Source: Escherichia coli (GTDB lineage: Bacteria; Pseudomonadota; Gammaproteobacteria; Enterobacterales; Enterobacteriaceae). Taken from it: a stretch of 64,000 bases of DNA. The notes under the pieces are model-generated. The model worked only from the letters and a program-made list of their open reading frames with translations, had not been told where the DNA came from and made no database searches. The stretch lies in the NCBI RefSeq assembly GCF_013315695.1, contig NZ_CP054353.1; one strand, written 5' to 3'. Position numbers and translations under genes: made by a program. Shown one piece after another: positions 1,653-19,965 of the stretch (position 1 is the stretch's first letter; each line of letters opens with the position of its first letter).

Positions 1653-1752
1653 ATATCTGTAATAAGAAATAGCCCTCGCCGCTTCCCTCTACAGGAATGG
1701 CGAAGGGCTGTCGGTTTCGACATGGTTGGCCATCATATGATGGCCTTTTTTA
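1653..1752 (+). ncRNA. sdhX: 3'UTR-derived sRNA of the sdh-suc transcript (SdhX/RybD-like), ending at the sucD terminator
   Basis: Position immediately downstream of the sucD stop, two consecutive hairpins, the second followed by a T-run; assignment rests on recalled K-12 biology, exact 5' end not determinable from sequence. Confidence 0.5.
1728..1751 (+). terminator. rho-independent terminator of the sdh-suc operon
   Basis: Perfect palindrome ggccatcatatgatggcc followed by tttttt. Confidence 0.75.
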
Positions 1753-1857
1753 TTCGGGCACTAATCTGAAAAGTTTGCCCACTGCTTTTTTTCCCCATCC
1801 TCTGCGCAATAATGCCCGGCGAAATATCTCCTCTCCGTTCTGTAAAAGGATTTATAC

Positions 1858-3051
1858 ATGAAGAAAATTGTTCTGCCGGTTGCTCTGGCCCTGATGGGTA
1901 TAAATGCGGACGTTTATGCGGCCGATGTAAAGATCGATATTTTAAGTGCAACAGTGAAAGATAAACGCATTGAGGGGGCATCGGTGACGCTGCAACGCAA
2001 TGGCGCACAATCTGTTTCTGGCACCACAAATGCCTCGGGCAGCATTAATCTGGGCTCTTCCTTTGCCGATGATCAAGATGCTTTGTTAATCGTCAAAAAA
2101 GAGGGCTATTCTAATCTGGTGGTCAAATGCCCGTGTGCGGGCATGACTTATGCGATTAGTCCGGTAATGACTAGTCTGGATGGCATGCGTGTCGTATTGA
2201 GCTGGGGCGAAAAGCCTTTTGATCTTGATTCGCATTTGATCTTCCCTGGCGGACATATTTATTTTGATAGTAAAGAGGGGACTGATGCCAATCTGGATGT
2301 TGATGATACGGATAGCTATGGACCAGAAACTGTCACTATCAGCAAAAAGCATTTTGGCGAAAGTTACATCTATGCCGTGCAGGACTATAGCAATAAAGGG
2401 TTGCCCAACAGTAATTATCTCTCTGCCAGTAAGGCAAAAGTGTTTGTTTATGTAGGGGGCTCCCTGGTGCGTAGTTATAGTGTCCCTGCTGGAAAACGAG
2501 GGAACATCTGGACCGTGTTTAAACTCAATCCAAACGGCGAGTTTGAAGATATCAACTCTGTTACCACCGCCAATTTTAACGACACCACATTAGGCGTCAG
2601 GGATTTAGCCACTGTGATAATGCCTGCGACGGGTTCTTCAACTCCGGCTTCACCTGCGATGCAAAACAGTGGATATACTCAACTGGCAAGAAAATATAAT
2701 CGTGAAGGCGAAGCTGTTTACAAAACCGGTCAACTTGAGCAAGCCATTCAACTCTTCCAACAGGCAACAGAATTAGACGGCAATTACGGTCAGGCATTTA
2801 GTAACCTGGGTCTGGCTTATCAGAAAAATGGCAACATCGCGGAAGCGATTTGGGCAAATCGTAAAGCGATCTCGTTAGCCAGTGGAGCAAATGCGGCGAC
2901 AACGCGCGCTAACTCCTATTATAACATTGCCAAAATTTATGAAACTGCAGGACAGAACGCTGATGCATTGCAGCATTATCAACTCGCTTATGCGGAAAAA
3001 AATAAGCCCTCTTATGAAGAGGCCATCGCACGGGTAAAAGCGAAAATGTAG
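1858..3051 (+). CDS. exported protein of unknown function with C-terminal TPR repeats (middle region resembles a YfaP/DUF2135-like domain)
   Basis: 397 aa; N-terminal signal peptide MKKIVLPVALALMGINADVYAA; AAGGA RBS upstream; C-terminal TPR-like repeats; absent from the K-12 sucD-cydA interval as I recall it. Confidence 0.7.
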   Translation: MKKIVLPVALALMGINADVYAADVKIDILSATVKDKRIEGASVTLQRNGAQSVSGTTNASGSINLGSSFADDQDALLIVKKEGYSNLVVKCPCAGMTYAISPVMTSLDGMRVVLSWGEKPFDLDSHLIFPGGHIYFDSKEGTDANLDVDDTDSYGPETVTISKKHFGESYIYAVQDYSNKGLPNSNYLSASKAKVFVYVGGSLVRSYSVPAGKRGNIWTVFKLNPNGEFEDINSVTTANFNDTTLGVRDLATVIMPATGSSTPASPAMQNSGYTQLARKYNREGEAVYKTGQLEQAIQLFQQATELDGNYGQAFSNLGLAYQKNGNIAEAIWANRKAISLASGANAATTRANSYYNIAKIYETAGQNADALQHYQLAYAEKNKPSYEEAIARVKAKM

Positions 3052-3428
3052 CGGTTAGCAAACAGGAGGCTATGTGGTGTTAGCCTCCTTACCCCCAGGC
3101 CAGTGGGAATATAGTAATCATCGTTTTTAACATTCAACGTCCAGATTCTGCTTGAGCGTAAAAACAAGTCTTTAGATATTTTATAAATGATGAAGGGCTG
3201 GAAAGTGGTTGATGTCACCGACTCACGATCGTTATCGCCAGCAAAGCTTTTTTGCCATTGCACCAGACGCACCTTCAACCATTTTGGCGACGAATCAACT
3301 GCTACCGCCACCAGGCTTGTTTGCCATTTTCCCGTACCTAATTCGTCGCTTGCCGCACTGTTGGCTGTAATCAATGGCCCAATGCCCAACCAGATACTTC
3401 TATATCCGATTGGGTTTTGTTAATTGCG

Positions 3429-4025
3429 TTACCCCTTAAACGTTAACCTCGGTCGAAATCTGACCGCTGGCTGAATTAATCCGGCTTCTTGTTGGGCTTC
3501 GATAACCGGACCAATATCTTTATAAGCAGCTGGCGCTTCTTCAATACGCCGTTCTTCGCGCAATGTGACGCATTGCCACGGCAACGTTGACTCTGCAGTC
3601 GCGCGTGAGCGCATGGCCTGCCGACGCTGGCTGCGTCCTGCTCCGTGACTGCAAGACCACAGCCACTCCGGGTTGCCGCAACCAACCGCAAGCCAGGAAT
3701 AATCACCCATGGAACCGGGGATTAACGCCAGATCGCCCGCGCGTGCCGGTGTTGTGGCCACCACAGCGCCAACGGGGACGCCATTGCCGGGATGAAAATC
3801 TGGCGTCGCGCACGTCTGGCGCACATAACCTGGGTGGTCTGGTAGCTTCACTTCTGCAAAATCAAGCAGTTGTGTTACTGCTTTTTCTTCCAGCGGCAGT
3901 TCGTCCGGCAGCAGTACGCGGGCACTGGCACCTGATGGACGAGATAATGAAACAATATTGTTGGCGCGGGAAAGTTGGATCCCTTTGCGCAGAAAGGCTT
4001 TATCAAGCCTTGAAAGATGATGCAT
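3429..4025 (-). CDS. RtcB-family (RNA 3'-phosphate ligase) C-terminal domain protein; probably a truncated remnant
   Basis: 198 aa containing the RtcB C-terminal hallmarks PGSMG, SHGAGR and EAPAAYKDI...RP...KG; the N-terminal metal-binding half of the family is missing. Confidence 0.55.
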   Translation of the reverse strand: MHHLSRLDKAFLRKGIQLSRANNIVSLSRPSGASARVLLPDELPLEEKAVTQLLDFAEVKLPDHPGYVRQTCATPDFHPGNGVPVGAVVATTPARAGDLALIPGSMGDYSWLAVGCGNPEWLWSCSHGAGRSQRRQAMRSRATAESTLPWQCVTLREERRIEEAPAAYKDIGPVIEAQQEAGLIQPAVRFRPRLTFKG

Positions 4026-4276
4026 AACGCTGTCCTGAAATATAGACGTTAAACAACCCCCTGTATTGCGAGGGTAATTTTGTCTTTCCGGTCAGCAGCC
4101 AGCAAAAGGGAAAGAAAACGCGCGTAGTGTATGTGGCGATAGCAAGTTTTACAAGTGGTAAATCTGGCTTATTGTTAAAGAGGAATTATCTTTTGTGAAG
4201 TCTTTTAAGGCCATGACTCATTCAATTTAACCGGACATAGATAATATATAACATAGGGTATATAAATTTATCATTG

Positions 4277-4405
4277 TATACTTGTCATAATTCAAGTTGC
4301 ATGTGCTGCATCGATGTTCGCTCACCCAGGTCACTTACTTATGTAAGTTTCTGGAAATTCATTATTTGTTCCCTTCCTGCAACTTGACTTATTTAGAGTA
4401 TATTC
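4277..4405. repeat. ERIC/IRU intergenic repeat, degenerate copy
   Basis: Contains ttcaagttgcatgtgctgc and cgctcacccaggtcacttacttatgtaag; about 80% identical to the copy at 49934-50062, which matches the ERIC1R/ERIC2 primer sequences. Confidence 0.8.
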
Positions 4406-4614
4406 ATGTATATGAATAATATTCTTGCAATAATAGCTTTAAAGTATTGCATGCGGATAACTGAGGTGAAATTCCTGTTTTAGGATTATTGTCACTTTAT
4501 TTTCCTGGTTAGACATATAGCTGACTGGTTTGTTTATTTGAATTATGATATTCATTAGTGCTACTGTTTTTTATAAAATAATTTTTGAATTGTTATTTTT
4601 TCACGGACGGCATT

Positions 4615-5520
4615 ATGCGAGGAAAAATACCTAAAACGGAACTGCTGGTGACTTTTGAGGTCGTCGCACGTCATGAAAGTTATACCAGAGCGGCAGAGGA
4701 GTTAGCGTTAACCCAAAGTGCAGTATTCAGACAAGTAAGTGCGCTGGAGGAATTTTTACATACTCCGTTATTTTCACACTCTAAAAAACGCATTTTTCTT
4801 AATGATGCAGGGAAGTATTACCTGGGGATAGTAAAAGAAACATTAAATAAGCTGGAACGCGATACCAATACCATTATGACCTGGCAGCCTACGGTTCAGG
4901 TTATTGAACTTGCCGTTAATCCTACTTTTAGTACCCACTGGTTAATCCCAAATTTACATGAATTCACAAAGTTACATCCCGATATTATTGTTAATATTCA
5001 TTCTTTAGCTAATAACGGCGACTTTCTTAATCGGGAGTACGATGCTGTCATTATGCGCGAAAATTTTTGCGCGCCCTGGGCGGAAGTAGAGTATCTCTTT
5101 GAAGAGGAGATTTTGCCGGTATGCAGCGGCAGTTTGCTTGCAATGTCCGATCAAAAACTGTCAGTGGCAGAACTGCTTACTGAGTTACCACTTCTGCATC
5201 AAAGCACCCGTATTACTGGCTGGGAAGAGTGGTTTGCTTTATCTGGCGTTAGCAGTCCGCTGGTCAATAACGGACCACGTTTCGATTTGCTTTCAATGCT
5301 GATTGCCGCCGTGCGCTCTAATCTCGGCGTGGCGCTGTTACCACGGTTCGCTATTCAACATGATTTGGATAGTGGCGATATGGTGATTCCCTGTGATGTG
5401 CCTATTCGTACCGGTAATCGTTTTATTATGACGTGGCAGGAAGAGAAGTCTGACTCACCGCACTTGCAGCAATTTCGTGAATGGTTGCTGGCGAAATCGG
5501 TCGTACCGCAGGAGATGTAA
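4615..5520 (+). CDS. LysR-family transcriptional regulator
   Basis: N-terminal HTH (ESYTRAAEELALTQSAVFRQVSALE) plus substrate-binding domain; ATG at 4615 preferred over the TTG-extended ORF at 4585. Confidence 0.85.
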   Translation: MRGKIPKTELLVTFEVVARHESYTRAAEELALTQSAVFRQVSALEEFLHTPLFSHSKKRIFLNDAGKYYLGIVKETLNKLERDTNTIMTWQPTVQVIELAVNPTFSTHWLIPNLHEFTKLHPDIIVNIHSLANNGDFLNREYDAVIMRENFCAPWAEVEYLFEEEILPVCSGSLLAMSDQKLSVAELLTELPLLHQSTRITGWEEWFALSGVSSPLVNNGPRFDLLSMLIAAVRSNLGVALLPRFAIQHDLDSGDMVIPCDVPIRTGNRFIMTWQEEKSDSPHLQQFREWLLAKSVVPQEM

Positions 5521-5523
5521 AAC

Positions 5524-5550
5524 CTGCGCCTGGCGGGATGCCAGGCGCAG
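5524..5550. terminator. bidirectional hairpin between the convergent LysR and adenosyltransferase genes
   Basis: 10-bp perfect stem ctgcgcctgg / ccaggcgcag with 7-nt loop. Confidence 0.6.
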
Positions 5551-5553
5551 TTA

Positions 5554-6156
5554 TTACCAGTCGATACCCGGCTGGGCCTGAATGCCGTTATCAAAAGCAT
5601 GTTTGACGGGGCGGATTTCGCTTACCGTATCCGCCATTTTTAATATCTGACTGTGGCAACCGCGTCCGGTGACAATGACACTTTGTTGTGCCGGGCGGTT
5701 TTGCAGAGAAGCGATCACTTCTTCGGTGTCCAGATAATGGTAAGCCAGCATATAGGTCAGCTCATCAAGCACCACTAAGTCGTAACGCTTGTCAGCCAGC
5801 ATCCGTTTGCTTTCCGACCAGACCTCTTTCGCCGCGTCGATATCCGCTTGCCGGTTCTGTGTCTCCCAGGTAAAACCGGTTCCCATAATATGAAACTCAA
5901 CCCCCAGCGGCTGGAGAAGGTTGTATTCGCCGTTGTCCCATTGCCCCTTGATGTACTGCGCAACCCCCACCGTTTTGCCATGACCCACCGCGCGCGTCAC
6001 AGTACCAAACGCGGCAGTGGATTTCCCTTTGCCGTTGCCGGTGAAAACAATCAAGATCCCTTTTTTCTCTATCGCCGCCGCGACGCGCGTATCGACCTGT
6101 TCCTTCAATTTCTGCTGGCGCTGCACATGCCGTTCAGTTGAAATTCGCGCTTCCAT
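5554..6156 (-). CDS. ATP:cob(I)alamin adenosyltransferase (CobA/BtuR family), second copy
   Basis: 200 aa; P-loop VFTGNGKGKSTAAFG; near-colinear with E. coli BtuR as recalled. Confidence 0.85.
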   Translation of the reverse strand: MEARISTERHVQRQQKLKEQVDTRVAAAIEKKGILIVFTGNGKGKSTAAFGTVTRAVGHGKTVGVAQYIKGQWDNGEYNLLQPLGVEFHIMGTGFTWETQNRQADIDAAKEVWSESKRMLADKRYDLVVLDELTYMLAYHYLDTEEVIASLQNRPAQQSVIVTGRGCHSQILKMADTVSEIRPVKHAFDNGIQAQPGIDW

Positions 6157-6165
6157 TCATTTTCC

Positions 6166-7818
6166 TTAATGTCCCGCAGGGCAACTGGCGCAGCGGTGTT
6201 TCTGCTCAAACTGACTAAAGAAATTATTGCCTTTATCATCTACCAGGATGAATGCGGGTAAATTTTCCACTTCCATCATCCACACCGCTTCCATACCCAG
6301 CTCCGGGTATTCCAGGCAACGCAGACTTTTGACATATTCTTGCGCCAGTAACGCAGCTGCACCGCCAATACTTCCCAGATTGAAGCCGCCATGTTTGTGA
6401 CAGGCATCGGTGACCTGCTGGCTGCGGTTACCTTTCGATAACATCACCAGACTGCCGCCAGCCGCCTGGAAGGTATCGACATAACCGTCCATTCGACCGC
6501 CCGTGGTTGGACCCAGTGAACCGCAGGCCATGTTCTCCGGTGTTTTCGCCGGGCCAGCGTAATAGACAATATGATGCTTCAGGTAATCCGGCATCGGTTC
6601 GCCGCTATCCAGCCGCGCTTTTATTTTGGCGTGGGCGATATCGCGCGCCACTACGATGGGACCACTTAACGACACGCGGGTGCCTACCGGTAATCTGGCG
6701 AGATCCTGCATCACGTCACGCAACGGACGATTTAGATCCAGCTGTACATGTTGCGCGTGATTTTCTTCCCGCAGTGAGGCTGGAATATATTGCCCCGGAT
6801 TGTGTTCGAGTTTTTCCAGCCAGATACCGTGCTTGTTAATTTTTGCTTTGATATTGCGATCCGCAGAACAGGAGAGCGTCATAGCTATCGGGCAAGAGCC
6901 ACCGTGACGCGGCAGACGAATGACGCGAATATCATGAGCGAAATATTTACCCCCAAATTGCGCACCAATACCAAATTGCTGACTGGCCTCGAGCAATACT
7001 TTTTCCAGCTCAATATCACGGAATGCTTGTCCTTGCTCGTTTCCGCTGGTGGGCAAATTGTCGTAATATTTCGTTGAGGCCAGCTTGGCAACTTTTAAGG
7101 TTTGATCGGCTGAAAGCCCTCCGACGACAAAGGCGATGTGGTAAGGCGGGCAGGCAGCGGTGCCCAGCGATTTCATTTTTTCGATTAAAAATGCGGTCAG
7201 TTTTTCTGGTTGCAATAGGGATTGGGTTTCCTGATAAAGCGCGGCTTTATTGGCAGAGCCGCCCCCTTTATTAATACAGAGAAAATGGTACTCATCACCA
7301 GCGACGGCGCTGATATCAATCTGCGCCGGGAGATTGGTTTGCGTATTGACTTCGGTAAACATATCCAGTGGCGCATTTTGTGAAAAGCGCAGATTATTTT
7401 CCTGAAAAGTGGTGTAAATGCCTTTGCTTAAGGCTTCAGCGTCGTTACCTCCGGTCCATATCTGTTGCCCTTTACTGGCAACAATAGTTGCGGTGCCGGT
7501 ATCCTGACAGTTGGGTAATACCCCTTTTGCTGAGACTTCAGCATTACGTAATAACTGCAACGCAACGTATTTATCATTACTACTGGCGTGCGGATCGTTA
7601 AGAATGCTGGCGACCTGTTGCAAATGAGCGGAACGTAAGAAAAAAGAGGCTTCATAAAATGCCTGCCGGGCAAGCAGCGTTAATGCTTCAGGAGCGATTT
7701 TTATCACTTCTTCGCCGTCTAATTCCGTTACTGTAATATGTTGATCGCTAATTAATGTATATTCTGTACCGTCTTTATTTTGTAGAAACGGTTCTTGCCA
7801 GATAAATGGTTTGGACAT
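6166..7818 (-). CDS. fumD: class I (Fe-S) fumarate hydratase family; probable mesaconase/fumarase FumD
   Basis: 550 aa, FumA/FumB-like length and N-terminus ([11 protein letters not shown]...); lies in the methylaspartate operon. Confidence 0.8.
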
Positions 7819-7925
7819 ATTTCACTTTTCACCTTAAACGTTAGTTTTACTTAATTGCCGTCTAACTTCATGATCCGGCTTATAAAAATGCGTAGTCATT
7901 GGCTTCTGATTGCTTAAGATCCCCC

Positions 7926-9206
7926 TCAGGGCAGAGCAACGTTCGATTCATTGGGTTTTAATGCTTTACCCCGACAGCCCTCGCCGAAATGTTCGCCTTC
8001 CCACCGACTCACCATCGCAGCGCCCATTGCGTTGCTCATGACGTTTGTCGCGGAACGCCCCATATCAAGGAACGGATCAACGCCCATCAGCAAGATCAGC
8101 CCCGCTTCCGGAATATTGAACTGGTTGAGCGTGGCGGCGATAACCACCATTGAGGCGCGTGGTACGCCAGCCATTCCTTTCGAGGTCAACATCAGGATCA
8201 ACAGCATGGTGATTTGCTCACCGATGGATAAATGGATATTGCAGGCCTGGGCGATGAAAACTGTGGCGAAGGAGCAGTAGGCCATTGATCCAACGAGATT
8301 AAATGAGTAGCCAATGGGTAAGACAAAGCTGGCAATTTTGGGGGAAACGCCAAATTGCTCCAGTTTTTCAAGCGTTCCCGGAAAAGCCGCTTCAGAACTG
8401 GATGTGGTAAATGCCAGCAGGGCGGGTTCCGAAAGGGCACGGGTCAGGCGTCTGATGCAGGGGCCGACATAAACGATGGCCAGACCGATAAGCAGCACCC
8501 AAAGTAACAACATGGTGAAATAAAATTCACCCATAAAGATCCCGGCGCTCACCATAACTGCCAGTCCTCGTTCAGCAATCAATGCTGAAATAGCGGCGAA
8601 TACGGTCAGGGGAGCGAAGAGCATGACGTAGCCAGTGAGCTTTAACATGGCATGTGCCAGCGAATCTAAGGCGTGAACGATGGCGCTGCCTTTCTCACCA
8701 ATCGCCGTCAGGCTACAGCCGAGGAAAATTGAGAACACCACGATTTGCAAAATTTCATTGTGCGCCATGGCATCGACAATGCTGGTGGGGAAAGCATGCG
8801 AAATAAATACTTTTAGTGTAAAGGGTTCTGACGCGACCACTCCGGTGGTTTCGGCACCGTGTGCAACAAAATTAATTCCTGTGCCTGGCATGAAGAAATT
8901 TACCGTTATCAAGCCTAAGGCAATTGACAGCAATGAGGCGCAAATAAATAAAAAGAGTGTTTTAGAAAAAATACGACCAAGGGCTTTGGCATCTCCCATT
9001 TTAGCTATACCTACCACCAGGGTAGAGACCACTAACGGAGCGATAATCATTTTTATCAGTCGTAAGAAAATCGTCGTGAATATCGATATTTCTTGCGCAT
9101 AGAGTTTTGCGGTTTCCGGTGAAGCAGTGTTATTGAGCACTACGCCGATAATCATTCCAAGTACCAGCGCCAAAAGAATCATCGTGGTTAAACTTATTTT
9201 CTTCAT
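7926..9206 (-). CDS. DctA-like dicarboxylate/amino acid:cation symporter (DAACS family)
   Basis: Polytopic membrane protein of DctA-like length; start moved to the ATG at 9206, which is preceded by GGAGGA. Confidence 0.8.
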   Translation of the reverse strand: MKKISLTTMILLALVLGMIIGVVLNNTASPETAKLYAQEISIFTTIFLRLIKMIIAPLVVSTLVVGIAKMGDAKALGRIFSKTLFLFICASLLSIALGLITVNFFMPGTGINFVAHGAETTGVVASEPFTLKVFISHAFPTSIVDAMAHNEILQIVVFSIFLGCSLTAIGEKGSAIVHALDSLAHAMLKLTGYVMLFAPLTVFAAISALIAERGLAVMVSAGIFMGEFYFTMLLLWVLLIGLAIVYVGPCIRRLTRALSEPALLAFTTSSSEAAFPGTLEKLEQFGVSPKIASFVLPIGYSFNLVGSMAYCSFATVFIAQACNIHLSIGEQITMLLILMLTSKGMAGVPRASMVVIAATLNQFNIPEAGLILLMGVDPFLDMGRSATNVMSNAMGAAMVSRWEGEHFGEGCRGKALKPNESNVALP

Positions 9207-9251
9207 TTTTTCCTCCATCAGGTGCACGGCGATAAATCAGAATCAGGAGAA

Positions 9252-9283
9252 GTAGATGCCTGAATAGAGATTCAGGCATCTAC
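9252..9283 (-). other. intercistronic stem-loop (14-bp perfect stem, 4-nt loop) inside the operon
   Basis: gtagatgcctgaat agag attcaggcatctac; no U-run follows on the transcribed strand. Confidence 0.5.
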
Positions 9284-9366
9284 CTGCTATTACAACCTTA
9301 CAAATAGCTGAAGTGTTGAACTGCAATAAGTGACGGGATGTCAGTTGGCTAAAAGTATTCGGATTT

Positions 9367-9684
9367 TTACAAATCGAAACTCATATTTAATAAAGGTGCA
9401 TGTTGCTGTGCACCATAGACATCATTGTCACCTACATTCCCGGAGATAATATCTCGTGGCATGACGATTTTTACTGCGTTAGAAGGATCAAACCAGACAA
9501 TACGGTGAATAAAGTCAGGTTCAACATGATATAAGCGCGCAATCAGTTCTGGGGTTAATTGCCCTGATGATTTAACTCGCTCATAGTTTTCTTTCGTTTT
9601 AAATAAAATATCTAAAACCAGTTCGTAAGGTCCGGCATTTTTCGAACGAATGACTTGCGCCAGTGAGACAATTGACTGTTTCAT
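9367..9684 (-). CDS. small protein of unknown function (DUF4387/AtuB-like by recollection)
   Basis: 105 aa ORF whose start overlaps the stop of the upstream gene by 4 nt (translational coupling). Confidence 0.6.
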   Translation of the reverse strand: MKQSIVSLAQVIRSKNAGPYELVLDILFKTKENYERVKSSGQLTPELIARLYHVEPDFIHRIVWFDPSNAVKIVMPRDIISGNVGDNDVYGAQQHAPLLNMSFDL

Positions 9685-11051
9685 GCCTGAACTCCTTCTG
9701 GCGTCACCTGTTCAATATGGAAATCAAAACGCAGAGCGTCGTTGGCTTCAATCAGGTGATATATGGAAAATTCGTATACCGGCCCGCCCTGGATATCAGA
9801 AGGGGAGAACGGGAACGCCAGATTGCCTGCGGTAGCGATGCGGTTTTCATAGCCGTAGTGCAGCATGGTAGAGCGCACCAGCGAGCAAACGCTATTGGCA
9901 ATTTCCTGGGTCGGTGCAACTACATCAAGGACAATCCCCAGCTCATGCCCGGCAGTTTGCATCGGTTCATGGTCGCCCATCACCCCGTTTTTGCCGTACA
10001 GGTGGAAATTGATGCGAATGCTGTCATCGTCGAGCGACAGGTTACGCCAAACGCTGGTTTTGACTTCATCGATGATTTTATCGATCCCGGCGATCATGAT
10101 CGGGTCGCGCGTTCCTGCGATGGTCAGACAGCGGAAGCCCACCCGTCGCGCACCTTCCAGTTTCAGGGCATACGGCGTTTCTTCATGCTTAGAACCGCTG
10201 ACGTACACTTCGCCGTCATTGACCGCTTTAAATGTGCAGCCTTTCAGGTTCAACACGCCGCCAGGTCCAGGCAGGAAGTAGGGATCGGATTTCTCATACA
10301 GTGTGTGTGCAGCCGCTGACGTTTCGGTAAATTTACGCTTCGGATTAAATGTCTTCAGCGTAAAGCCGTTGTCATCAATGATGCCCATCGCACAGTCAGA
10401 GCCTGAGCCGGGCGTTGCGGCGATTGCCGCGCATTCAAGGATTTTCCCACAATGCAGCGCCAGACCTTCATCAAAGCCTTGCATGATCGGGAGCGCAGCA
10501 AAGCAGGCCGGGTCGTAAGCGCGCCCGCCCAGCACCACTTGCGCGCCTTCTTTCAGCGCCCGCTGGAAGGGTTCGATGCCCATTTGCGCGACGATATACG
10601 TACTTTCGTCAATCGCGTCGTGGGTTAACGGCGGGACAAAATCCAGCGCCGTGATTTTGCCGTTATCCAGCGCCTGGTGGACGATGGCTTTGTCAACGTC
10701 TGCCGGGATCAACGCCATCGAGAACGAGAGGTGCTCTTCCTGGGCAATCTCATGAATTATTTCTCGGCACCACTCCAGGTGTGGTGCGGCACCAGAACCG
10801 CCAGCTGTTCCGATCACCACCGGTATATTATTTTGCACGCCTGCGGTGATCATATAGCGCAGATCGCGCTTGACCCCTGCGCGATCGGTAAACGGTTTGC
10901 CTGCCCCGAGGTAGTGGGGGCCTGGATCGGAAGAGCCTGCATCAACGGCGATCAGATCGGGCGATTCTGCCATCGCTTTGCGGAAGCTCTCTTCCGGGAA
11001 TCCATACCCGAGGATTGCCGTTGGCGATAAGACTTTAAAAGAACGAGCCAT
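9681..11051 (-). CDS. DUF1446 (AtuA-like) family protein, function unknown
   Basis: 456 aa; family assignment is from memory of the N-terminal region and is unverified. Confidence 0.6.
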   Translation of the reverse strand: MARSFKVLSPTAILGYGFPEESFRKAMAESPDLIAVDAGSSDPGPHYLGAGKPFTDRAGVKRDLRYMITAGVQNNIPVVIGTAGGSGAAPHLEWCREIIHEIAQEEHLSFSMALIPADVDKAIVHQALDNGKITALDFVPPLTHDAIDESTYIVAQMGIEPFQRALKEGAQVVLGGRAYDPACFAALPIMQGFDEGLALHCGKILECAAIAATPGSGSDCAMGIIDDNGFTLKTFNPKRKFTETSAAAHTLYEKSDPYFLPGPGGVLNLKGCTFKAVNDGEVYVSGSKHEETPYALKLEGARRVGFRCLTIAGTRDPIMIAGIDKIIDEVKTSVWRNLSLDDDSIRINFHLYGKNGVMGDHEPMQTAGHELGIVLDVVAPTQEIANSVCSLVRSTMLHYGYENRIATAGNLAFPFSPSDIQGGPVYEFSIYHLIEANDALRFDFHIEQVTPEGVQA

Positions 11052-11054
11052 TTG

Positions 11055-12296
11055 TTAATCCTTAGCCTGCAACAGCGCGATAGTACGATTCATTTCGTTG
11101 AAGACGATATCGAGGCCTTCGTCAAAGCCCATCCCTGGCTTTACCAGCATACGCATAGGGCGAGCGGCAAGGGCGACGTGGACACAGGTGCGGGCACTGA
11201 CATCAGTTTCATTGCAGGTGCCGCCCTGGTACGCTTCCATGCTGTGGCTGTTGCAGTAAAGAACCGCATCGACGATGTTGTGAATACTGCCCAGATCCGG
11301 GGTTTTGATTTGCACCATGTGACAACTGGCGGCATCAGTGAAATCAACAATATCCTGGTAGGTGTTACACCATTCATCGGCCACAATTTTCACGCCGGAA
11401 CCGAGGCGCGTCAGCTCTTTGGTAATCGCGGTCAGCAGGCGAATTTGATCGGGCTTGTTACCGGCATCGACCGGCCCTTCAATGTAGAGCGGCAGGCCTT
11501 GCGCTTCTTTTTCCAGGCTGGCGATGTATTGCGCACAGCGAAGCGGATCCATATCGAAGATCAGGCCGATAGTGCCGTATACATCGATGTGCAGGGTTGG
11601 GTGGTAGCGTGCGCTGGTGCGCTTGCTCAGAATACGATCCGACAGCCAGCGGACATATTCGCGCAGTTTTTCACCTTTAAAGCCCAGTTTCTCTTCGACG
11701 TTATTAATCAGTGCATGGGGCAGCACGTCGATGCCCTTAAGGATCATCTTATCGACGGCGATATATCGATCGTCCCCGCTCTGACCAAATAATGGAATGG
11801 ATTCCGCCACGCGTGGCAACTGCCATTCATCACAGACCACTTCAGTTTTCAGACGGCCGGTTGCCAGCGCGGTAGCATCAAGCAGCGCCTGTGATAATCC
11901 GTAGCGCACGGCGGTATGCAGCAAGTTGCCGTCAATACGCAATTTGTCGAAGAAACGGGCATTCGGCAGGAAAGCATCCACATCGCGGCCTATCAGTAAT
12001 GGCTTGATATGGTCGTTGAGGAACGGAATAAAGTGCTCAGCGAGGAACAGTGGATCGCGACCACCTGCCCCGGAATACTGTACGGCAGCACAGTCACCTA
12101 CGGCGACCGCGCCGTTTTCCAGAATCAACTGTACCGATACGCACTCCCCGGCCTGACGAACGGCGTTAAACCCCTGTGTTACCGGCTCCCCGGTATAAAA
12201 AAAGCCGTCATGACCCGCTCCGTTTTTTATCGCCTGCTGGTCATCGAAATAGAATGAGGAGTAGCCAGCAGTGAACAGAGCCTGTTTTATTTTCAT
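11055..12296 (-). CDS. mal: methylaspartate ammonia-lyase (beta-methylaspartase)
   Basis: 413 aa; N-terminus MKIKQALFTAGYSSFYFDDQQAIKNGAGHDGF matches clostridial MAL. Confidence 0.9.
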   Translation of the reverse strand: MKIKQALFTAGYSSFYFDDQQAIKNGAGHDGFFYTGEPVTQGFNAVRQAGECVSVQLILENGAVAVGDCAAVQYSGAGGRDPLFLAEHFIPFLNDHIKPLLIGRDVDAFLPNARFFDKLRIDGNLLHTAVRYGLSQALLDATALATGRLKTEVVCDEWQLPRVAESIPLFGQSGDDRYIAVDKMILKGIDVLPHALINNVEEKLGFKGEKLREYVRWLSDRILSKRTSARYHPTLHIDVYGTIGLIFDMDPLRCAQYIASLEKEAQGLPLYIEGPVDAGNKPDQIRLLTAITKELTRLGSGVKIVADEWCNTYQDIVDFTDAASCHMVQIKTPDLGSIHNIVDAVLYCNSHSMEAYQGGTCNETDVSARTCVHVALAARPMRMLVKPGMGFDEGLDIVFNEMNRTIALLQAKD

Positions 12297-13741
12297 TATG
12301 GTCTTCCTATTAATTTACTGTGGGATACAGCATTGATGTCATCTACAACCATCTGGAATGTCGGTTGGCGTCCTTCAAAGCGTGCGCGTTCCGCAACGTA
12401 ATCGTGGTGGAGGTCGAGAATATCTTTTGGCAATGGAACGGCTCCGGCTTCCAGTACGCGTATCGCGCCGGTGTTGTCACGGACCGGAAGAATTTTGCCC
12501 GCGTTGCAGGCGGCTGGCGCAAACGGCACATCCAGTACGCCCGCTTCAAATGCCAGCACCGTACCGCGCGCAATATCACCATTACCCAGTTCGAACACTT
12601 TATTCAGTACCGCGTGAACCTCGCTCTTAATCAGTTCAATTTCCAGTTCAACCGCAGGGCACGGCGGGAATTTCTGCTCGTTGACCATGTTGAGCATCTG
12701 GCGGGAGGCTTTCAGCCCCTGAATGTTGGCAGCGGCAGTCGGGATGCCCCAGGCTTCGTGCGGACTTTTGGTGATGACTTTGGTGGCACCAGACATCCCC
12801 GCGACGGCTGCGCCCCAGGAGATAATAGCGAACGCTTTCGATTCGTCTTCCGGAAAGCCGCCCATCCACTGGTGAAACACGGTACTTAATTCATAGTCGG
12901 TATAGCCATAGCTCTGAAAATATTCGTGTGCAAGTTCACGCAGAGACTGGATCGCCGCAACATCCTGCGTCAGGCTGCCGACCTGTCCATAACCAACGGT
13001 GATAGATTTCACACCCTGTTCCAGCGCCAGTAATCCTTCGATTATCGCGATAGAGTGCGAGATAAACGGCGGGATCAGGGTACCCGTTAGTGGGCCAAAC
13101 GGTTCGCGGTTGATGCGGATCCCGTGTTCTTCATACATCCCCATTAAACGGTCGCAGTACTGCCAGTCGCGGATCGATTTTTCCAGCGTTACGCGCTTGG
13201 CATACGGAATGTTGTAGGAAATGCCGCCGCCTTCATAACTGGTAAAGCCGCTGGCCATCGAGATTTCAGCCAGCAGACGCGCATCTGGCGTGCCGTGGCG
13301 GATCTGTAGCGGTTTTTGCAAAGTTTCGGTGAGGCGACGGCAAGCTGCGACGCCGTGGTTAACGACCGGTAAACCGTTCAGTTTAGAGGTTCCGGCTTCG
13401 ATGGATTTTTTAATCCCTACAGCCGCTTCTTCGTACCGATTCAGACGGGTATATGCGTCGATGGTGCTCGGCAGCAGATCGCATTCTTCTTGTAGTGTTT
13501 TCAGTAGTTCGATGTGTTCGTCCATCAGCGCCACGCCTGCGCGCGGTTGGCTAAGAGTTTTACCTTCCTTGTCTGCTTTCAGCAGGGCAAGAGAGAAGCG
13601 TTTATGCTCAGGAATGGTTTGTTGGTATTTAACGCCATCTTCAAAGTTTTCAACATCCTTGCCGGTTTCCCAGGTTTTCAGTACCTGTTGCCGCTCGGTC
13701 ATGAATTCGTCATGGGTTAATTTCTTATTTCGAAGTTCCAT
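12296..13741 (-). CDS. glmE: glutamate mutase epsilon (E) subunit
   Basis: 481 aa; N-terminus MELRNKKLTHDEFMTERQQVLKTW resembles clostridial GlmE/MutE. Confidence 0.88.
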   Translation of the reverse strand: MELRNKKLTHDEFMTERQQVLKTWETGKDVENFEDGVKYQQTIPEHKRFSLALLKADKEGKTLSQPRAGVALMDEHIELLKTLQEECDLLPSTIDAYTRLNRYEEAAVGIKKSIEAGTSKLNGLPVVNHGVAACRRLTETLQKPLQIRHGTPDARLLAEISMASGFTSYEGGGISYNIPYAKRVTLEKSIRDWQYCDRLMGMYEEHGIRINREPFGPLTGTLIPPFISHSIAIIEGLLALEQGVKSITVGYGQVGSLTQDVAAIQSLRELAHEYFQSYGYTDYELSTVFHQWMGGFPEDESKAFAIISWGAAVAGMSGATKVITKSPHEAWGIPTAAANIQGLKASRQMLNMVNEQKFPPCPAVELEIELIKSEVHAVLNKVFELGNGDIARGTVLAFEAGVLDVPFAPAACNAGKILPVRDNTGAIRVLEAGAVPLPKDILDLHHDYVAERARFEGRQPTFQMVVDDINAVSHSKLIGRP

Positions 13742-13759
13742 TGATTGCAGCCTTAATTG

Positions 13760-15148
13760 TTATAGGGTTAAGCATTGAATACTGGTGCGCGCGGCGGCCA
13801 GCGGATCGACTCTGGCGACGTTTGCCAGCAGTGGTAATAGCCCCCGGGAATCGCGGTAATATTCAAATTCGGTCGGTAAGAGAATGCGTTTACCGTCGTC
13901 GTTTAACTCGCGGTATTTCAACCAGTGATGCATATCGAACTGACTGGCACGCGAGAGCCATCCGCCGGATCCGACGACTTTACGCACGGTTGTCAGGTCA
14001 CGTCCCATCTGTAAATCGACATTGCCGACGCAGGTGCAGACCTCTTTTTTGGTGCCCGCATGTCTTTCGGTGGCATAACCCACACACAGTCCGGCCAGGA
14101 CTGTATCGAAATATTTTTCTTCTGCATTCGCGGGTAAGTAGTCGGGATGAGCGACTAGATGACGGAGGTAATGATAAAAAGCGTCCAGCTGTGCGGGTTG
14201 CTGAGCAAAATTCACATTGACTAACTCTTTCGCACTTTCACCAACCACCATTGCCGAGACGCGCATTCCCAGATCGCCTTCCACCGTCCGTTTCACGAAG
14301 GGTTCCGGTACGCCGTGTAAAACGGTGTCGGGCGAGAGCGTGTTGGCACAGGCGGAATAGACATCGGTGGTTGCGCCACCCATGTCGATCAGTATGAACT
14401 CTTTCCAGCTGTGATCGACATTACTGATTGCCTTAACCAGTTCAAAGACTGTCCACGGTGTCGGCATTGGTTCTTCGCCTGTTTTATCAACAACGACATC
14501 CAGCCCTTTCCCTTTAACGATGCGTTTAAGGAATATGTCGCAGATAGCCTGGCGTGCAGCTAAAGGGTTCGGATGGTCAAGATCGGGCAGAACGTTGTCG
14601 ACGATGGTCAGGTCTTTATGCCCTAGGATCTCCTGCACCTCGTCCTGAATATCCCGGTTTCCGGCATAAATAATGGCGCAGTCGAGTTTGGATTCTGCCA
14701 GCACACGGGCGTTATTCAGGCCGTAGCTTTCTTCTCCGCCGTCGGTGCCGCCGGTGAACAAGAGAATATCGGGCTGCGTTTCTTCCAGTGCCTGGATATC
14801 ACGGCGGTTCAGCTTGTAGGAGTAATATTGCGCAATTTTAGCCCCCGCAGAGTGAGCGGTTACTTTCGCGGTTTCCAGGGTGATAGAAGGCACCAATCCC
14901 ATTGCGGCAACCGCCAGCCCACCTTTGGCAGAGGAGGAATACTTCAATGCAACCTCACCGTTGTTAAACAGGGGGAGGGTATTATCTACGTTTAACACCA
15001 GGTTCAGGCTGGAGAAAAACCCCTTCGCCAGATGATGGGTGGTGGTTGGGGTCAGTACGTGGTTAACCAACGTTAACGCGTCCCCCTCCCGGGCGAAGAG
15101 GGCTGCTTTGGTCCACGTCGATCCAATATCGACAGAGACGATTTGCAT
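13760..15148 (-). CDS. glmL: glutamate mutase L component (MutL/GlmL)
   Basis: 462 aa, the size of clostridial GlmL; sits between the S and E subunit genes. Confidence 0.8.
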   Translation of the reverse strand: MQIVSVDIGSTWTKAALFAREGDALTLVNHVLTPTTTHHLAKGFFSSLNLVLNVDNTLPLFNNGEVALKYSSSAKGGLAVAAMGLVPSITLETAKVTAHSAGAKIAQYYSYKLNRRDIQALEETQPDILLFTGGTDGGEESYGLNNARVLAESKLDCAIIYAGNRDIQDEVQEILGHKDLTIVDNVLPDLDHPNPLAARQAICDIFLKRIVKGKGLDVVVDKTGEEPMPTPWTVFELVKAISNVDHSWKEFILIDMGGATTDVYSACANTLSPDTVLHGVPEPFVKRTVEGDLGMRVSAMVVGESAKELVNVNFAQQPAQLDAFYHYLRHLVAHPDYLPANAEEKYFDTVLAGLCVGYATERHAGTKKEVCTCVGNVDLQMGRDLTTVRKVVGSGGWLSRASQFDMHHWLKYRELNDDGKRILLPTEFEYYRDSRGLLPLLANVARVDPLAAARTSIQCLTL

Positions 15149-15597
15149 CAGATTGCCTCTTCAAGAATACGAGTATCAACGTCATGACGTTGGTTGATAT
15201 CGTGTGCCATCAGCTGACAAACATCTTCTAAGTCATGACTTGGGGCAAAGACGCGATCAAATCCCATCTCTTTGAATTTGGTTTCCACGTCAGCGAAGTC
15301 ATGTTTTCCGACCACCAGGTTACCGCCCACATAGAGCAGGATGTCCCCCAGTCCACGCTCGATGCAGCGTTCGCGCATGCCCAGACAGTCGATATCGCCA
15401 TGCCCATAGATAGAGGAGACGACAATCGCGTCAGCGCCAGTTTCAATGGCCGCATCAATATATTCGTCCTGGCTGACCATTACGCCCAGATTAATGACTC
15501 TGAAGCCATGGTTGCTAAAAACGCGGTCCAGAACTTTATTGCCTACTGCATGGCAGTCCGCGCCAATAACGCCAATCACAAGTGTTGCTTTCTTCAT
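15148..15597 (-). CDS. glmS: glutamate mutase sigma (S) subunit, cobalamin-binding
   Basis: B12-binding domain; start taken at MKKATLV (15597), preceded by AAGGA, rather than the longer ORF from 15660. Confidence 0.85.
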
Positions 15598-16143
15598 GGG
15601 TAATCCTTTGTAAGACAGAGAGTAAAATAAGTTACACACGTCGTATTTATGGCCGTTCATAACGGCACAGGTTTAATATCACAGGAGTGTCTTTATCTGA
15701 CCGTAATGTTGCAATTGATCTATTTTCAAAATGTCTTTCGGGAAATGATTGTTTAAAGTATGTTGTTAAATTCTCATGTTAATTCAGTGTGTTATGTCAA
15801 CTAATGTCATGAATGTTAAATTTTTAAAATTAACTTGATTTGGTGTATTGAGGTATTTGTGATCTACTTCTAATTTGCATTTTAGTGATATGGGTTTAGC
15901 CATGAGTAAATGCATTTCATAAAATTTAAGTCGAATTTCACTGCAATTCATCTCTGCTTAATGTAAAAATAATGTTGAAAATAACAAATGGTTAATGATT
16001 CATGCGAATTATGACCTTAGTTAGCTCTTTTGATTTTTCGTAAAAAAGAGAGGTACATGAAGGTGCTACCAGTATGAGTAACGTTAATCAAAGGTTTTAT
16101 TACGTCTGGCAATAACGCAGGCCATTTTCGCGACTGGGTGGAT

Positions 16144-16566
16144 TTAATCAGTATAATCCTCATACAATAGTTCACGATTAACTGAACCGTTAACGGGGAT
16201 TTGGTGTTGAAATTTAGAAATGGCGGAGTCAATTAATGAAGACAATATCGAAAAAATGACAGTGTCAGAATTAATTTCAATTAATCCTTCTCGTTGTTGA
16301 CCAAAAAAGATATTTATCTTGATTTCATTTGTACTACGGCAATCAATATGTAGTAATTTTTGATCGCTGAGATTTTCTGTTTCATAAATGTTTTTGGCGA
16401 TAGTCGGATGTATTGATGCCAGACATCTGCTCAGATAAGCCAGATCCTTTAGGGAACACCCCGCTGAGTAGAGGATGTCAGAGAATTTTTGTGTGTTAAC
16501 TGTTGTCTCTGAAGCGTATGTTGCATTGACAGGAAGGGTGTTGAAAGAGATTTGAGATGGGAGCAT
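16144..16566 (-). CDS. hypothetical protein, no recognisable domain (AT-rich)
   Basis: 140 aa ORF, Ser/Thr/Asn-rich N-terminus; same strand and 80 bp downstream of the 314-aa ORF. Confidence 0.55.
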   Translation of the reverse strand: MLPSQISFNTLPVNATYASETTVNTQKFSDILYSAGCSLKDLAYLSRCLASIHPTIAKNIYETENLSDQKLLHIDCRSTNEIKINIFFGQQREGLIEINSDTVIFSILSSLIDSAISKFQHQIPVNGSVNRELLYEDYTD

Positions 16567-16646
16567 TATTTAAATCTTTCCGTGAGTAATAAAAATTAAT
16601 CCCCGGGCATTGTTTAGCAATATTTGCCACAGGTAATATATAAAAA

Positions 16647-17591
16647 TTAAAGTATTTGATTGGCATCGGTTAACTGATCAATAACCAGTGCCAGATTGGT
16701 AAACATTTTGAAAAAGCGATACTGGCTCGGAATATCTCTTTCAAAGACGAAACATTCAATGTCATTGTTTGAAAAATAAAGGACTAGTGTTGCTGATTCG
16801 TCAGGAAAAATATGGAAATATATCTGGTTACCAGAAGGAGGATAGTCCAGAAGAAGGGTATCTTTGCCCGTCACATACCTGTTGTGGTCGTGGATGCTGC
16901 GCTCACACTTCATCAGAGGTGTCATGATACTCATGTATTCATCTGATGTTAATATATTAAAATCACCATCCATTTTAAAGAAACGATAAAGTAACAGTAC
17001 ATCCTCTTGCGTAACCGGTTCGTTTGTTTTTAGAGGGAAATAAGTGGGAACCAGAAGATGAGGTTCTAATCTATTTTGTTGAGCGCTATAACTAAATTTG
17101 AACATAAATTCCGGATCGCTCATCAATTGAGCGACATAATTATGCCTGGCTTCAAAAATTTTAACTTTTATCAGGTTAAATAAGTCTGTTTCGTCATCCT
17201 GTATTAAAAGACATTGGCCATAGCAGCCAGGCTTTTTTTCATTATAAGCAGAAACGGTTATTCTGTCAGGAGTGTCAACGTTATATCCAAAAGCCAGATA
17301 GTGACCGTCCTCATCGAGATTTGTTTCCAGGTTATTTAAATTTATCACATGAAGTGTTTGCAATGCTGATTCAATGAGCTGTTGACTCTCTGAGGTAAAT
17401 GTTTCGCGCTGCGTTGTATAAAGTGTATCGATTCCAACGACTATCCGATATGGGTCAAGGATGGCGGCAATCATCTTTATTACCTGCACAGCCACGGGTG
17501 ATGTCATTGATTCGTTATCTGTTTTTAGAGGATCATTAGATGGCCAACCTGAGAAGCGATTGACAGCCGAACCGATATTATCAGGACTCAT
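16647..17591 (-). CDS. hypothetical protein, no recognisable domain (AT-rich)
   Basis: 314 aa ORF, acidic and Phe/Tyr-rich; GAGG RBS about 9 nt upstream of the ATG. Confidence 0.6.
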   Translation of the reverse strand: MSPDNIGSAVNRFSGWPSNDPLKTDNESMTSPVAVQVIKMIAAILDPYRIVVGIDTLYTTQRETFTSESQQLIESALQTLHVINLNNLETNLDEDGHYLAFGYNVDTPDRITVSAYNEKKPGCYGQCLLIQDDETDLFNLIKVKIFEARHNYVAQLMSDPEFMFKFSYSAQQNRLEPHLLVPTYFPLKTNEPVTQEDVLLLYRFFKMDGDFNILTSDEYMSIMTPLMKCERSIHDHNRYVTGKDTLLLDYPPSGNQIYFHIFPDESATLVLYFSNNDIECFVFERDIPSQYRFFKMFTNLALVIDQLTDANQIL

Positions 17592-17949
17592 AGCAGCAAC
17601 CTCATTGTAATCAAGCGAGGCGCTGAGCGTACTCGGCTATAGAAAAACTAACTTGCAAAAATCGCTCATTTTTCATTTATCAGGCGAAAGTGGTCTCTGT
17701 TCACTCAGAAACAATCACTCCCGCTAAGTCATACCTGTTTCATCGATACACTTAAGTGATTATTACTAATGAAACAATAACATAACGGGCTTACGGCCGG
17801 TGCTCATAAAGGCAACAATCAATTAACTTTGATAAAAATATGTTATGTAAAATAGCAACAAATTGGCTAATCTAATCAATTGGTATTATAAAAAGTGGAT
17901 AAGGCGGTTCTGTTAAATAAAACACTGGTTTTTTATCTATACCTTTTCA

Positions 17950-18396
17950 TTGTAATAATTGTGTTGCATAAATATTTCACAATAAATTAACAATAAAATC
18001 ACCAATGATCTATGGTTTATACATAATTAACATATTTGGTTGGTTTTGATATAAATCAATTTTTAATTCTTGAAAAAAATCTGCAAAACACGATAAATTG
18101 TCGTAGATCAAATTGGTGAGATCGTGACAATTTCGCTATAAATTGATCACTGTCGAAAAATGCAAATTTGCTCAATAAAAACCTGTTTATTGTAAGGATT
18201 TTGCGGCGTAATATAATTACGGGATCAATTTGGTTTATTCATTAACATATTTGTAACTTTTTTATCATTGTCTTTTCCTCTTTTGATGAAATGGCAACGA
18301 TAGAGGCGAGCAAATAATTTTGTATTGGGGCATGCGTGTGACCCTTTCTAACGGGGTTCACTCTCGGAGTCTTCATGCGATGAGCAAGGAGTCATG
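17950..18396 (+). promoter_or_regulatory. cydAB promoter/regulatory region
   Basis: Long AT-rich leader upstream of cydA with a repeated ggtttat-N-attaacatatttg motif (18014-18047 and 18229-18258) and TTGAT-like half sites; exact sites not resolved. Confidence 0.45.
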
Positions 18397-19965
18397 ATGT
18401 TAGATATAGTCGAACTGTCGCGCTTACAGTTTGCCTTGACCGCGATGTACCACTTCCTTTTTGTGCCACTGACGCTCGGTATGGCGTTCCTGCTGGCCAT
18501 TATGGAAACGGTCTACGTCCTTTCCGGCAAACAGATTTATAAAGATATGACCAAGTTCTGGGGCAAGTTGTTTGGTATCAACTTCGCTCTGGGTGTGGCT
18601 ACCGGTCTGACCATGGAGTTCCAGTTCGGGACTAACTGGTCTTACTATTCCCACTATGTAGGGGATATCTTCGGTGCGCCGCTGGCAATCGAAGGTCTAA
18701 TGGCCTTCTTCCTCGAATCCACCTTTGTAGGTCTGTTCTTCTTCGGTTGGGATCGTCTGGGTAAAGTTCAGCATATGTGTGTCACCTGGCTGGTGGCGCT
18801 CGGTTCAAACCTGTCCGCACTGTGGATTCTGGTTGCGAACGGCTGGATGCAAAACCCAATCGCGTCCGATTTCAACTTTGAAACTATGCGTATGGAGATG
18901 GTGAGCTTCTCCGAGCTGGTGCTTAACCCGGTTGCTCAGGTGAAATTCGTTCACACTGTAGCGTCTGGTTATGTGACTGGCGCGATGTTCATCCTCGGTA
19001 TCAGCGCATGGTATATGCTGAAAGGTCGTGACTTCGCCTTCGCTAAACGCTCCTTTGCTATCGCTGCCAGCTTCGGTATGGCTGCCGTTCTGTCTGTTAT
19101 TGTTCTGGGTGATGAATCTGGTTACGAAATGGGCGACGTGCAGAAAACCAAACTGGCTGCTATTGAAGCCGAGTGGGAAACGCAACCTGCGCCTGCTGCC
19201 TTTACTCTGTTCGGCATTCCTGATCAGGAAGAGGAGACGAACAAATTTGCGATCCAGATCCCTTACGCGCTGGGCATCATTGCAACGCGTTCCGTGGATA
19301 CTCCAGTTATCGGCCTGAAAGAACTGATGGTGCAGCATGAAGAACGCATTCGTAACGGGATGAAGGCGTACTCTCTGCTCGAGCAACTGCGTTCTGGTTC
19401 TACCGACCAGGCGGTTCGTGACCAGTTCAATAGCATGAAGAAAGACCTCGGTTACGGTCTGCTGCTGAAACGCTATACGCCAAACGTGGCTGATGCGACT
19501 GAAGCGCAGATTCAACAGGCAACCAAAGACTCCATTCCGCGTGTAGCGCCGCTGTACTTCGCGTTCCGTATTATGGTGGCGTGTGGCTTCCTGCTGCTGG
19601 CAATCATCGCGCTCTCTTTCTGGAGTGTCATCCGCAACCGCATTGGCGAGAAAAAATGGCTGCTGCGCGCCGCGCTGTACGGTATTCCGCTGCCGTGGAT
19701 TGCTGTAGAAGCGGGCTGGTTCGTGGCTGAATATGGCCGCCAACCGTGGGCTATCGGTGAAGTGCTGCCGACAGCTGTGGCGAACTCGTCACTGACCGCA
19801 GGCGATCTCATCTTCTCAATGGTGCTGATTTGCGGCCTGTATACCCTGTTCCTGGTGGCAGAATTGTTCTTAATGTTCAAGTTTGCACGCCTCGGCCCAA
19901 GCAGCCTGAAAACCGGTCGCTATCACTTTGAGCAGTCTTCCACGACTACTCAGCCGGCACGCTAA
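18397..19965 (+). CDS. cydA: cytochrome bd-I ubiquinol oxidase subunit I
   Basis: 522 aa from [28 protein letters not shown]. Confidence 0.97.

Follow-up and report, generated by a model that had tools for sequence, protein, structure and literature searches.

The glutamate fermentation cluster of Escherichia coli O157:H7 (Sakai ECs0755-ECs0764) raises the question of what controls an operon for which no condition of expression is known. Kronen & Berg 2015 (PMC4682846) report the cluster from ~91% of O157:H7 strains and from numerous opportunistic enterobacteria; they found no condition for its expression in E. coli O157:H7 and detected no methylaspartase activity. The same cluster lies in a 64-kb stretch of E. 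coli DNA, hereafter the window. An initial annotation of the window had suggested that the operon may be cryptic, in agreement with the published lack of an expressing condition (PMC4682846), and had attributed this to silencing of the AT-rich DNA upstream of the cluster's first gene, glmS, by the protein H-NS. The same H-NS argument could be made for any AT-rich intergenic DNA, and this first reading passed over a more specific likely cause of silence, namely a weak activator-dependent promoter together with a dedicated LysR-type regulator in the island. Here we analyze the tract upstream of glmS by comparing it to related loci. We find it to be an unremarkable control region, not characterised before, that belongs to the glutamate mutase/methylaspartase operon.

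The operon and its genomic context

In this locus, glmS encodes the S subunit of methylaspartate (glutamate) mutase, not glucosamine-6-P synthase. According to the annotation of an identical record, the operon runs on the minus strand in the order glmS-glmL-glmE-mal-atuA-DUF4387-symporter-fumD-cobO, where mal encodes methylaspartate ammonia-lyase, atuA an AtuA-family protein, the next named gene a dicarboxylate/amino-acid symporter, and fumD a class I fumarase (FumD mesaconase). Upstream of glmS, past two hypothetical genes, cydA is transcribed in the opposite direction from 18397. Positions 15000-18500 of the window are 100% identical to E. coli strain MS 21-1 and close relatives. The clusters of Klebsiella, Lelliottia and Hafnia have a glutaminase gene after the symporter gene (at 14677-15678, 14443-15444 and 14628-15686 of loci L085, L093 and L092, respectively), and the E. 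coli cluster does not. The features discussed in this work are collected in Table 1.

Table 1. Positions in the window of genes, predicted control elements and segments of the intergenic tract
Feature	Coordinates	Strand	Remarks
LysR-type regulator, 301 aa, GcvA-like	4615-5520	+	at the operon's far end, convergent with cobO
glmS	15148-15597	-	149 aa, first operon gene; start codon backed by orthologue alignment
Conserved control region	15598-15750	-	from comparison of loci
Predicted leader, 82 nt	15598-15679	-	+1 at A15679 (+/-2), inferred from the -10 position
Shine-Dalgarno AGGA	15604-15607	-	6 nt before ATG; in conserved block A(G/A)AGGATT (30-sequence alignment)
Leader hairpin GCCGTT-ATG-AACGGC	15652-15666	-	E. 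coli-type sequences only
Predicted -10 hexamer GACACT	15691-15686	-	3/6 match to TATAAT
Predicted -35 hexamer TTGCAA	15714-15709	-	TTG invariant; 17-nt spacer to -10
Conserved putative operator, 31 bp	15745-15715	-	-66 to -36, abuts -35
Fast-evolving AT-rich DNA, no conserved element	15750-16003		Escherichia only; holds spurious 55-aa ORF
3' flank of orphan two-gene insertion	16004-16143	-	E. whittamii homology break; no intrinsic terminator
Orphan gene, 140 aa	16144-16566	-	annotation of identical DNA
Orphan gene, 314 aa	16647-17591	-	annotation of identical DNA

The cluster is carried by 21% of complete E. coli genomes. Relative to K-12, window positions 1752-18020 stand in for mngR-mngA-mngB and 473 bp of the mngB-cydA spacer, so that the sequence shared upstream of cydA is limited to the proximal 373 bp. 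The tract was initially assigned to an AT-rich, horizontally acquired region. This description is apt only for the base composition of the intergenic DNA and of the orphan two-gene insertion; the operon itself has a genome-like GC content (53%), and synteny with cydA extends to several genera. The cluster adjoins cydA in Klebsiella, Citrobacter, Salmonella arizonae and other Escherichia species, and glmS faces cydA directly, 810-1380 bp apart, in K. oxytoca, C. youngae, S. arizonae and Pseudescherichia vulneris. This position beside cydA in several genera suggests an old locus that many E. coli have lost, and not a recent import.

Limits and composition of the tract

The initial annotation described a non-coding, AT-rich region of ~480 bp upstream of glmS. 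Such a region is real, AT-rich and non-coding, but its edge had been misplaced by 63 bp. The RefSeq annotation of identical DNA starts glmS at 15597 (MKKATLV...) and places the stop of the 140-aa gene at 16144. Since glmS starts at 15597, and not at 15660, the true gap is 15598-16143, a minus-strand tract of 546 bp between the 140-aa orphan gene and glmS. The earlier left edge, 15661, derives from an in-frame upstream ATG (15660-15658). The N-terminal extension from this ATG is not conserved, the K. oxytoca ORF begins exactly at the MKK codon, and AGAGGATT...ATG before MKK or MQK is kept in all orthologues in our alignment.

The GC content is 0.326 over 15598-16143 and 0.319 over the span annotated initially, compared with 0.505 for the window and 0.532 for the operon; 1.15% of 546-bp windows have a GC content this low. 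The AT-rich block exceeds the gap, running from ~15430 to ~18520 and taking in both orphan genes (36-39% GC) and the DNA upstream of cydA. A second AT-rich segment (3991-5017, GC <0.36) comprises the region upstream of the LysR gene and the 5' end of this gene, and adjoins an RtcB fragment and a TPR gene not present in Sakai.

The sole sizeable ORF within the gap (15784-15951, minus strand, 55 aa) is not a gene, because it is disrupted by a frameshift or stop codon in E. coli MFDS1019527, Escherichia sp. MOD1-EC7003, E. whittamii and Escherichia sp. E1V33, and because amino acids are altered at many positions in its intact alleles. In Sakai (NC_002695.2), the tag ECs_0765 is absent from the current annotation between ECs_0764 and ECs_0766, which is the equivalent of 15598-16143. 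This tag may have belonged to a small ORF in the gap, possibly the spurious 55-aa ORF, that was once called and then withdrawn. Repeats in the gap consist of short matches only, as chance predicts.

Conservation of the tract

Comparison of 80 loci encoding GlmS relatives divides the tract into three segments (Table 1). Outside Escherichia, only 15598 to ~15796 is recognisable. Among five E. coli alleles, 3 sites vary in the 150 bp of 15598-15747, versus ~20% of sites in 15748-16147. Judged by these alignments, conserved function is limited to the promoter-proximal ~150 bp of the tract.

E. whittamii shares 15500-16003 with the window, and its homology returns from 17752/17756. Escherichia sp. 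E1V33 shares 15500-15894, a 42-bp piece reaching 16003, and then the sequence from 17752/17756 onward. Because 16004-17751 is missing from both, the orphan genes are an insertion into an older glmS-cydA divergent intergenic region. We saw this insertion in E. coli-type sequences only. Its two genes had no match in Pfam, NCBIfam or PADLOC, and only a non-significant one in PHROG. In Escherichia sp. MOD1-EC7003 (L029), the 314-aa gene is diverged (80% identity) and most of the 140-aa gene is missing. In strains 2016C-3878 and AR Bank #0349, an IS1 element interrupts the matched span, at ~16170-16185 of the window; in 2016C-3878 it falls within the last part of the 140-aa gene, immediately upstream of the gap.

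A predicted promoter

We applied phylogenetic footprinting to 54 Enterobacterales loci, and calculated an information-content profile from the 50 unique sequences. The motif ATCA[AT]TTG is found upstream of glmS in all 54 loci, 92-288 nt from the ATG, and despite this variable distance the geometry TTGnnn-17 nt-nAnAnT is fixed in every one of them. The information content has its maxima at TTG (-35 to -33), A-11, A-9 and T-7, while the spacer is uninformative and positions -66 to -36 are strongly conserved. Among the 50 unique orthologous sequences, TTG, A-11 and T-7 are invariant, and A-9 is invariant or nearly so. Peaks at -35 and -10, a flat spacer and a conserved -66 to -36 region make up the pattern that is expected of a promoter with an activator site.

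We predict that 15714-15686 is a weak sigma-70 promoter. It has hexamers related to those of sigma-70 promoters, a 17-nt spacer, selective conservation of the key bases and a spacer that is free to vary. The sequence TTGCAA-17-GACACT agrees with the sigma-70 consensus at 7 of 12 positions, which is under the 9/12 threshold of our first promoter scan, and the best sigma-70 candidate anywhere in the gap reaches no more than 8/12. Because the match to the consensus is only 7/12, the promoter should need an activator. The initial expectation that the tract holds the operon promoter is borne out to the extent that footprinting places a predicted promoter region at 15686-15745.

An additional element, TATTAA (15673-15678, minus strand; predicted +2 to +7), is conserved in the Enterobacteriaceae group, but this conservation does not extend to Yersinia, Hafnia or Morganella. 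The element may serve as an alternative -10 or as a second operator. As a -10, it would move all promoter positions by 13 nt.

A conserved putative operator

The conserved region upstream of the predicted -35 hexamer consists of a T-tract, (C/G)AAGA and the dyad TTGA-N7-TCAA (15729-15715), a T-N11-A box. Within the dyad, the conserved positions are T-49, G-48 and A-47 in one half and T-39, C-38 and A-37 in the other. The 18-mer TGAAAATAGATCAATTGC (15728-15711) is invariant in 30 aligned Enterobacteriaceae sequences, although neighbouring DNA has diverged; these sequences represent Escherichia, Klebsiella, Citrobacter, Salmonella, Enterobacter, Lelliottia, Pluralibacter, Buttiauxella, Pseudescherichia and relatives. 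In the Enterobacteriaceae group, the invariant operator includes a GATC (Dam methylation) site at 15717-15720, in place of which more distant genera have ATATC or AAATC.

The putative operator is rare. A position-weight scan of the window finds a single site, and the 18-mer likewise occurs once. Outside the glmS position, Yokenella and Enterobacter sp. ENT03 have a second copy, identical at 25 of 28 positions, in the intergenic region divergent from the regulator gene. This copy is upstream of a cobalamin-type (BtuCDF/BtuB-like) uptake system, comprising a FecCD permease, an ABC ATPase, a TonB-dependent receptor and a periplasmic binding protein. Of five Yersinia species, four have a related copy ~140 nt upstream of fumD, and in K. 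oxytoca the exact 11-mer AATAGATCAAT occurs 112 nt upstream of the regulator gene. Beyond six glmS sites and two extra copies, 237 kb of strand positions contained no further site that reached score 14. Position-weight and motif scans found no operator copy near the E. coli LysR gene.

We also compared the operator by eye with the consensus sequences of FNR, CRP, ArcA, IHF, Fur, ArgR, Lrp, RcsB and sigma-54/32, and none fits; an FNR site fails by one base of spacing.

A candidate regulator

The island encodes a LysR-type regulator (LTTR) that is already shown as a putative regulator in Fig 5 of Kronen & Berg (PMC4682846). Its domains are HTH_1 and LysR_substrate, its best NCBIfam match is the GcvA subfamily, at 221 bits versus a 288-bit cut-off, and its closest solved relative is GcvA (8y6u). 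Because it is below the GcvA cut-off, we consider the protein to be a paralogue, and not GcvA. Both the window and O157 Sakai encode an intact regulator. Strain MS 21-1 is otherwise near-identical to the window (8 differences in 21.5 kb), but in its regulator gene W90 is changed to a stop codon, and the gene is annotated as a pseudogene.

Orthologues of the regulator occupy the same convergent position in K. oxytoca and Lelliottia. In Yersinia, the regulator heads a leftward regulator-fumD-cobO unit, in Yokenella an orthologue lies upstream, and in Aromatoleum and Rhodoferax the gene and glmS diverge directly from each other. Compared across genera, it is fumD-cobO, rather than glmS, that the LysR gene accompanies. 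The operator is retained in Hafnia and, in a somewhat degenerate form, in Morganella, and we did not find a LysR gene, fumD or cobO within 10 kb of their loci. In these two genera the binder could be encoded elsewhere, or could be a different, more widespread factor.

Two hallmarks of LTTR control are present in the window: a T-N11-A dyad that overlaps or lies upstream of the -35, and a linked LTTR gene. A divergent regulator gene, which is a further hallmark, is not; the regulator is convergent and 10 kb from the promoter, and this hallmark is seen only in Rhodoferax and Aromatoleum. Given the cluster-linked orthologues and the extra operator copies that occur only inside glm clusters, the cluster's regulator is the best candidate, and we infer that it is the likeliest protein to bind the operator. 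Overall, it is probable, on the comparative evidence, that the control region combines a weak sigma-70 promoter with an operator bound by the island's GcvA-like LysR activator.

The control that we propose would operate as follows. The GcvA-like regulator (4615-5520) would bind the operator at 15745-15715 and, with a co-inducer derived from the pathway, would recruit RNA polymerase to a promoter that is too weak alone. Without the inducer, the operon would be silent, which would account for the failure to find conditions of expression. The other ~400 bp of the tract, consisting of fast-evolving AT-rich DNA and the insertion tail, contain no conserved element and are a plausible platform for H-NS, which as a second layer of silencing is speculation on our part.

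Alternative explanations

The proposed activation by the island's LysR protein has to be weighed against other ways in which the operon might be controlled. The closest to it keeps the operator but changes its binder: another regulator, global or encoded elsewhere, would bind the site, and the LysR protein would control only fumD-cobO. The Hafnia and Morganella operators that have no linked LysR gene, the linkage of this gene to fumD-cobO rather than glmS across genera, and the lack of an operator copy adjacent to the E. coli LysR gene all speak for such a binder. Nevertheless, we consider it unlikely, given that inspection by eye shows a misfit with the consensus sequences of FNR, CRP, ArcA, IHF, Fur and ArgR, that the operator occurs once in 64 kb, and that its extra copies are only in glm clusters, one of them in a promoter region divergent from a LysR gene. 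A little less doubtful, although still not our preferred reading, is that H-NS is the main control, polymerising over a 2.8-kb AT-rich block (15598-18393) and occluding the glmS promoter so that the operon is cryptic. The GC content is 32.6% in the gap and 35% over this block, versus 50.5% in the window, and A/T tracts are 3.6 times and TpA steps ~2 times as frequent in the gap as in the operon. The cydA control region reportedly binds H-NS in K-12, according to work ascribed to Govantes and colleagues in 2000. In O157 Sakai, ChIP-chip data (E-TABM-818/819) show that ~440 low-GC loci averaging 1.6 kb bind H-NS (PMC4764244), and the failure to find an expressing condition (PMC4682846) is likewise in line with H-NS silencing. 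The gap thus has the high AT content over several hundred bp of an H-NS target, but not the curvature, phased A-tracts or motifs, which are supportive and not obligatory: its A-tracts have no helical phasing, there is no 10-11 bp periodicity of AA/TT, and the high-affinity motif TCGATAAATT is not enriched, with only two 8/10 matches in the gap. Moreover, the distal AT-rich DNA is missing from most genera that keep the same promoter, and the conserved operator and weak promoter account for silence without H-NS. A literature search on locus tags ECs0761-0766 and Z0892-0897, or on H-NS with glutamate mutase, returned nothing relevant. We conclude that H-NS silencing is plausible in view of the base composition, that a weak promoter with an uninduced activator explains crypticity at least as well, and that the two could act together.

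There are two further alternatives. The main source of glmS transcripts might be not a dedicated promoter but read-through from the orphan module, or promoter-like sequences inside the AT-rich DNA. The initial annotation had supposed that the tract holds the terminator of the module; this is not supported, as two scans, one of them fold-based, found no intrinsic terminator (GC-rich hairpin and U-tract) between 16143 and the promoter (~15700). Read-through from the orphan module is therefore possible, and the 314-aa gene contains strong sigma-70-like matches directed toward glmS on the minus strand, at 17269-17241 (11/12) and 16952-16924 (10/12). Such promoter-like sequences are frequent in AT-rich acquired DNA. 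The module is absent from most genera, yet the promoter and operator are kept there, and the proximal 150 bp are strongly constrained within E. coli; as the main source of glmS transcription, read-through is improbable. Finally, since the mutase requires adenosylcobalamin, a cis-acting leader RNA (a cobalamin riboswitch or an attenuator) might be imagined to control this B12-dependent operon. The E. coli leader does have a hairpin (15666-15652), followed by a U-rich stretch, and a fold z-score of -2.0; the ATG in the loop of this hairpin is the codon that was initially taken as the start of glmS. In other genera, however, z-scores are near 0, and the average for 30 orthologous leaders is -0.23. 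An RNAalifold run with 25 leaders gave no consensus structure, with 3 trivial pairs and 0 compensatory changes, and the hairpins that can be spotted in the leaders of several genera do not exceed chance expectation. An Rfam scan of 15400-18500 (E<=10) returned only chance matches of eukaryotic snoRNA/miRNA type, with no cobalamin riboswitch and no sRNA. The predicted leader is, in addition, a mere 82 nt in length. Control by a leader RNA therefore seems extremely improbable.

Implications

In the main text of Kronen & Berg 2015 (PMC4682846), the words 'promoter' and 'operon' are absent and no promoter, operator or intergenic region is described; 'regulator' appears only as two figure-legend labels. 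Relative to that main text, the promoter and operator presented here are new predictions. Base-level predictions of a promoter, operator and candidate regulator provide handles on an operon that has resisted expression, namely 15686-15745, the regulator, and pathway intermediates as inducers.

More tentatively, we regard it as an open possibility, with the chances slightly against it, that the operator marks a dedicated regulon for B12-dependent glutamate breakdown, which is under the control of the cluster's LysR regulator and conserved across Enterobacterales. If true, this regulon would bring together glutamate mutase and methylaspartase, mesaconase and cobalamin adenosyltransferase, joined in some genera by a cobalamin-type uptake system. 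The pathway could then be switched on in enterohaemorrhagic E. coli by overexpressing the regulator or once its co-inducer is found, and one could test directly whether glutamate fermentation is important in the gut.

Comparison with known systems

The locus has features of two well-known kinds of system. As in H-NS-silenced DNA such as the LEE, bgl and AT-rich islands, an AT-rich block (35% GC, 2.8 kb) flanks a silent operon. Unlike H-NS-silenced islands, the operon's coding DNA is genome-like in GC content (53%), synteny with cydA is found in several genera, and A-tracts are unphased.

The resemblance to LTTR activator-dependent promoters, e.g., those controlled by GcvA at gcvT and by MetR at metE and metH, lies in a predicted weak sigma-70 promoter that follows a T-N11-A dyad. 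The MetR box is TGAA-N5-TTCA. GcvA site 1 at gcvT extends from -69 to -34, and the putative operator here has a similar extent, approximately -66 to -36; a literature search for the GcvA cryo-EM paper gave no confirmation of the GcvA site positions. In addition, a GcvA-like LTTR is encoded in the cluster. There are also differences from the usual arrangement. The E. coli regulator gene is convergent and 10 kb away, unlike at usual LTTR promoters, and whereas the textbook position of a LysR recognition site is near -65, the dyad here is centred at approximately -43, nearer to the promoter.
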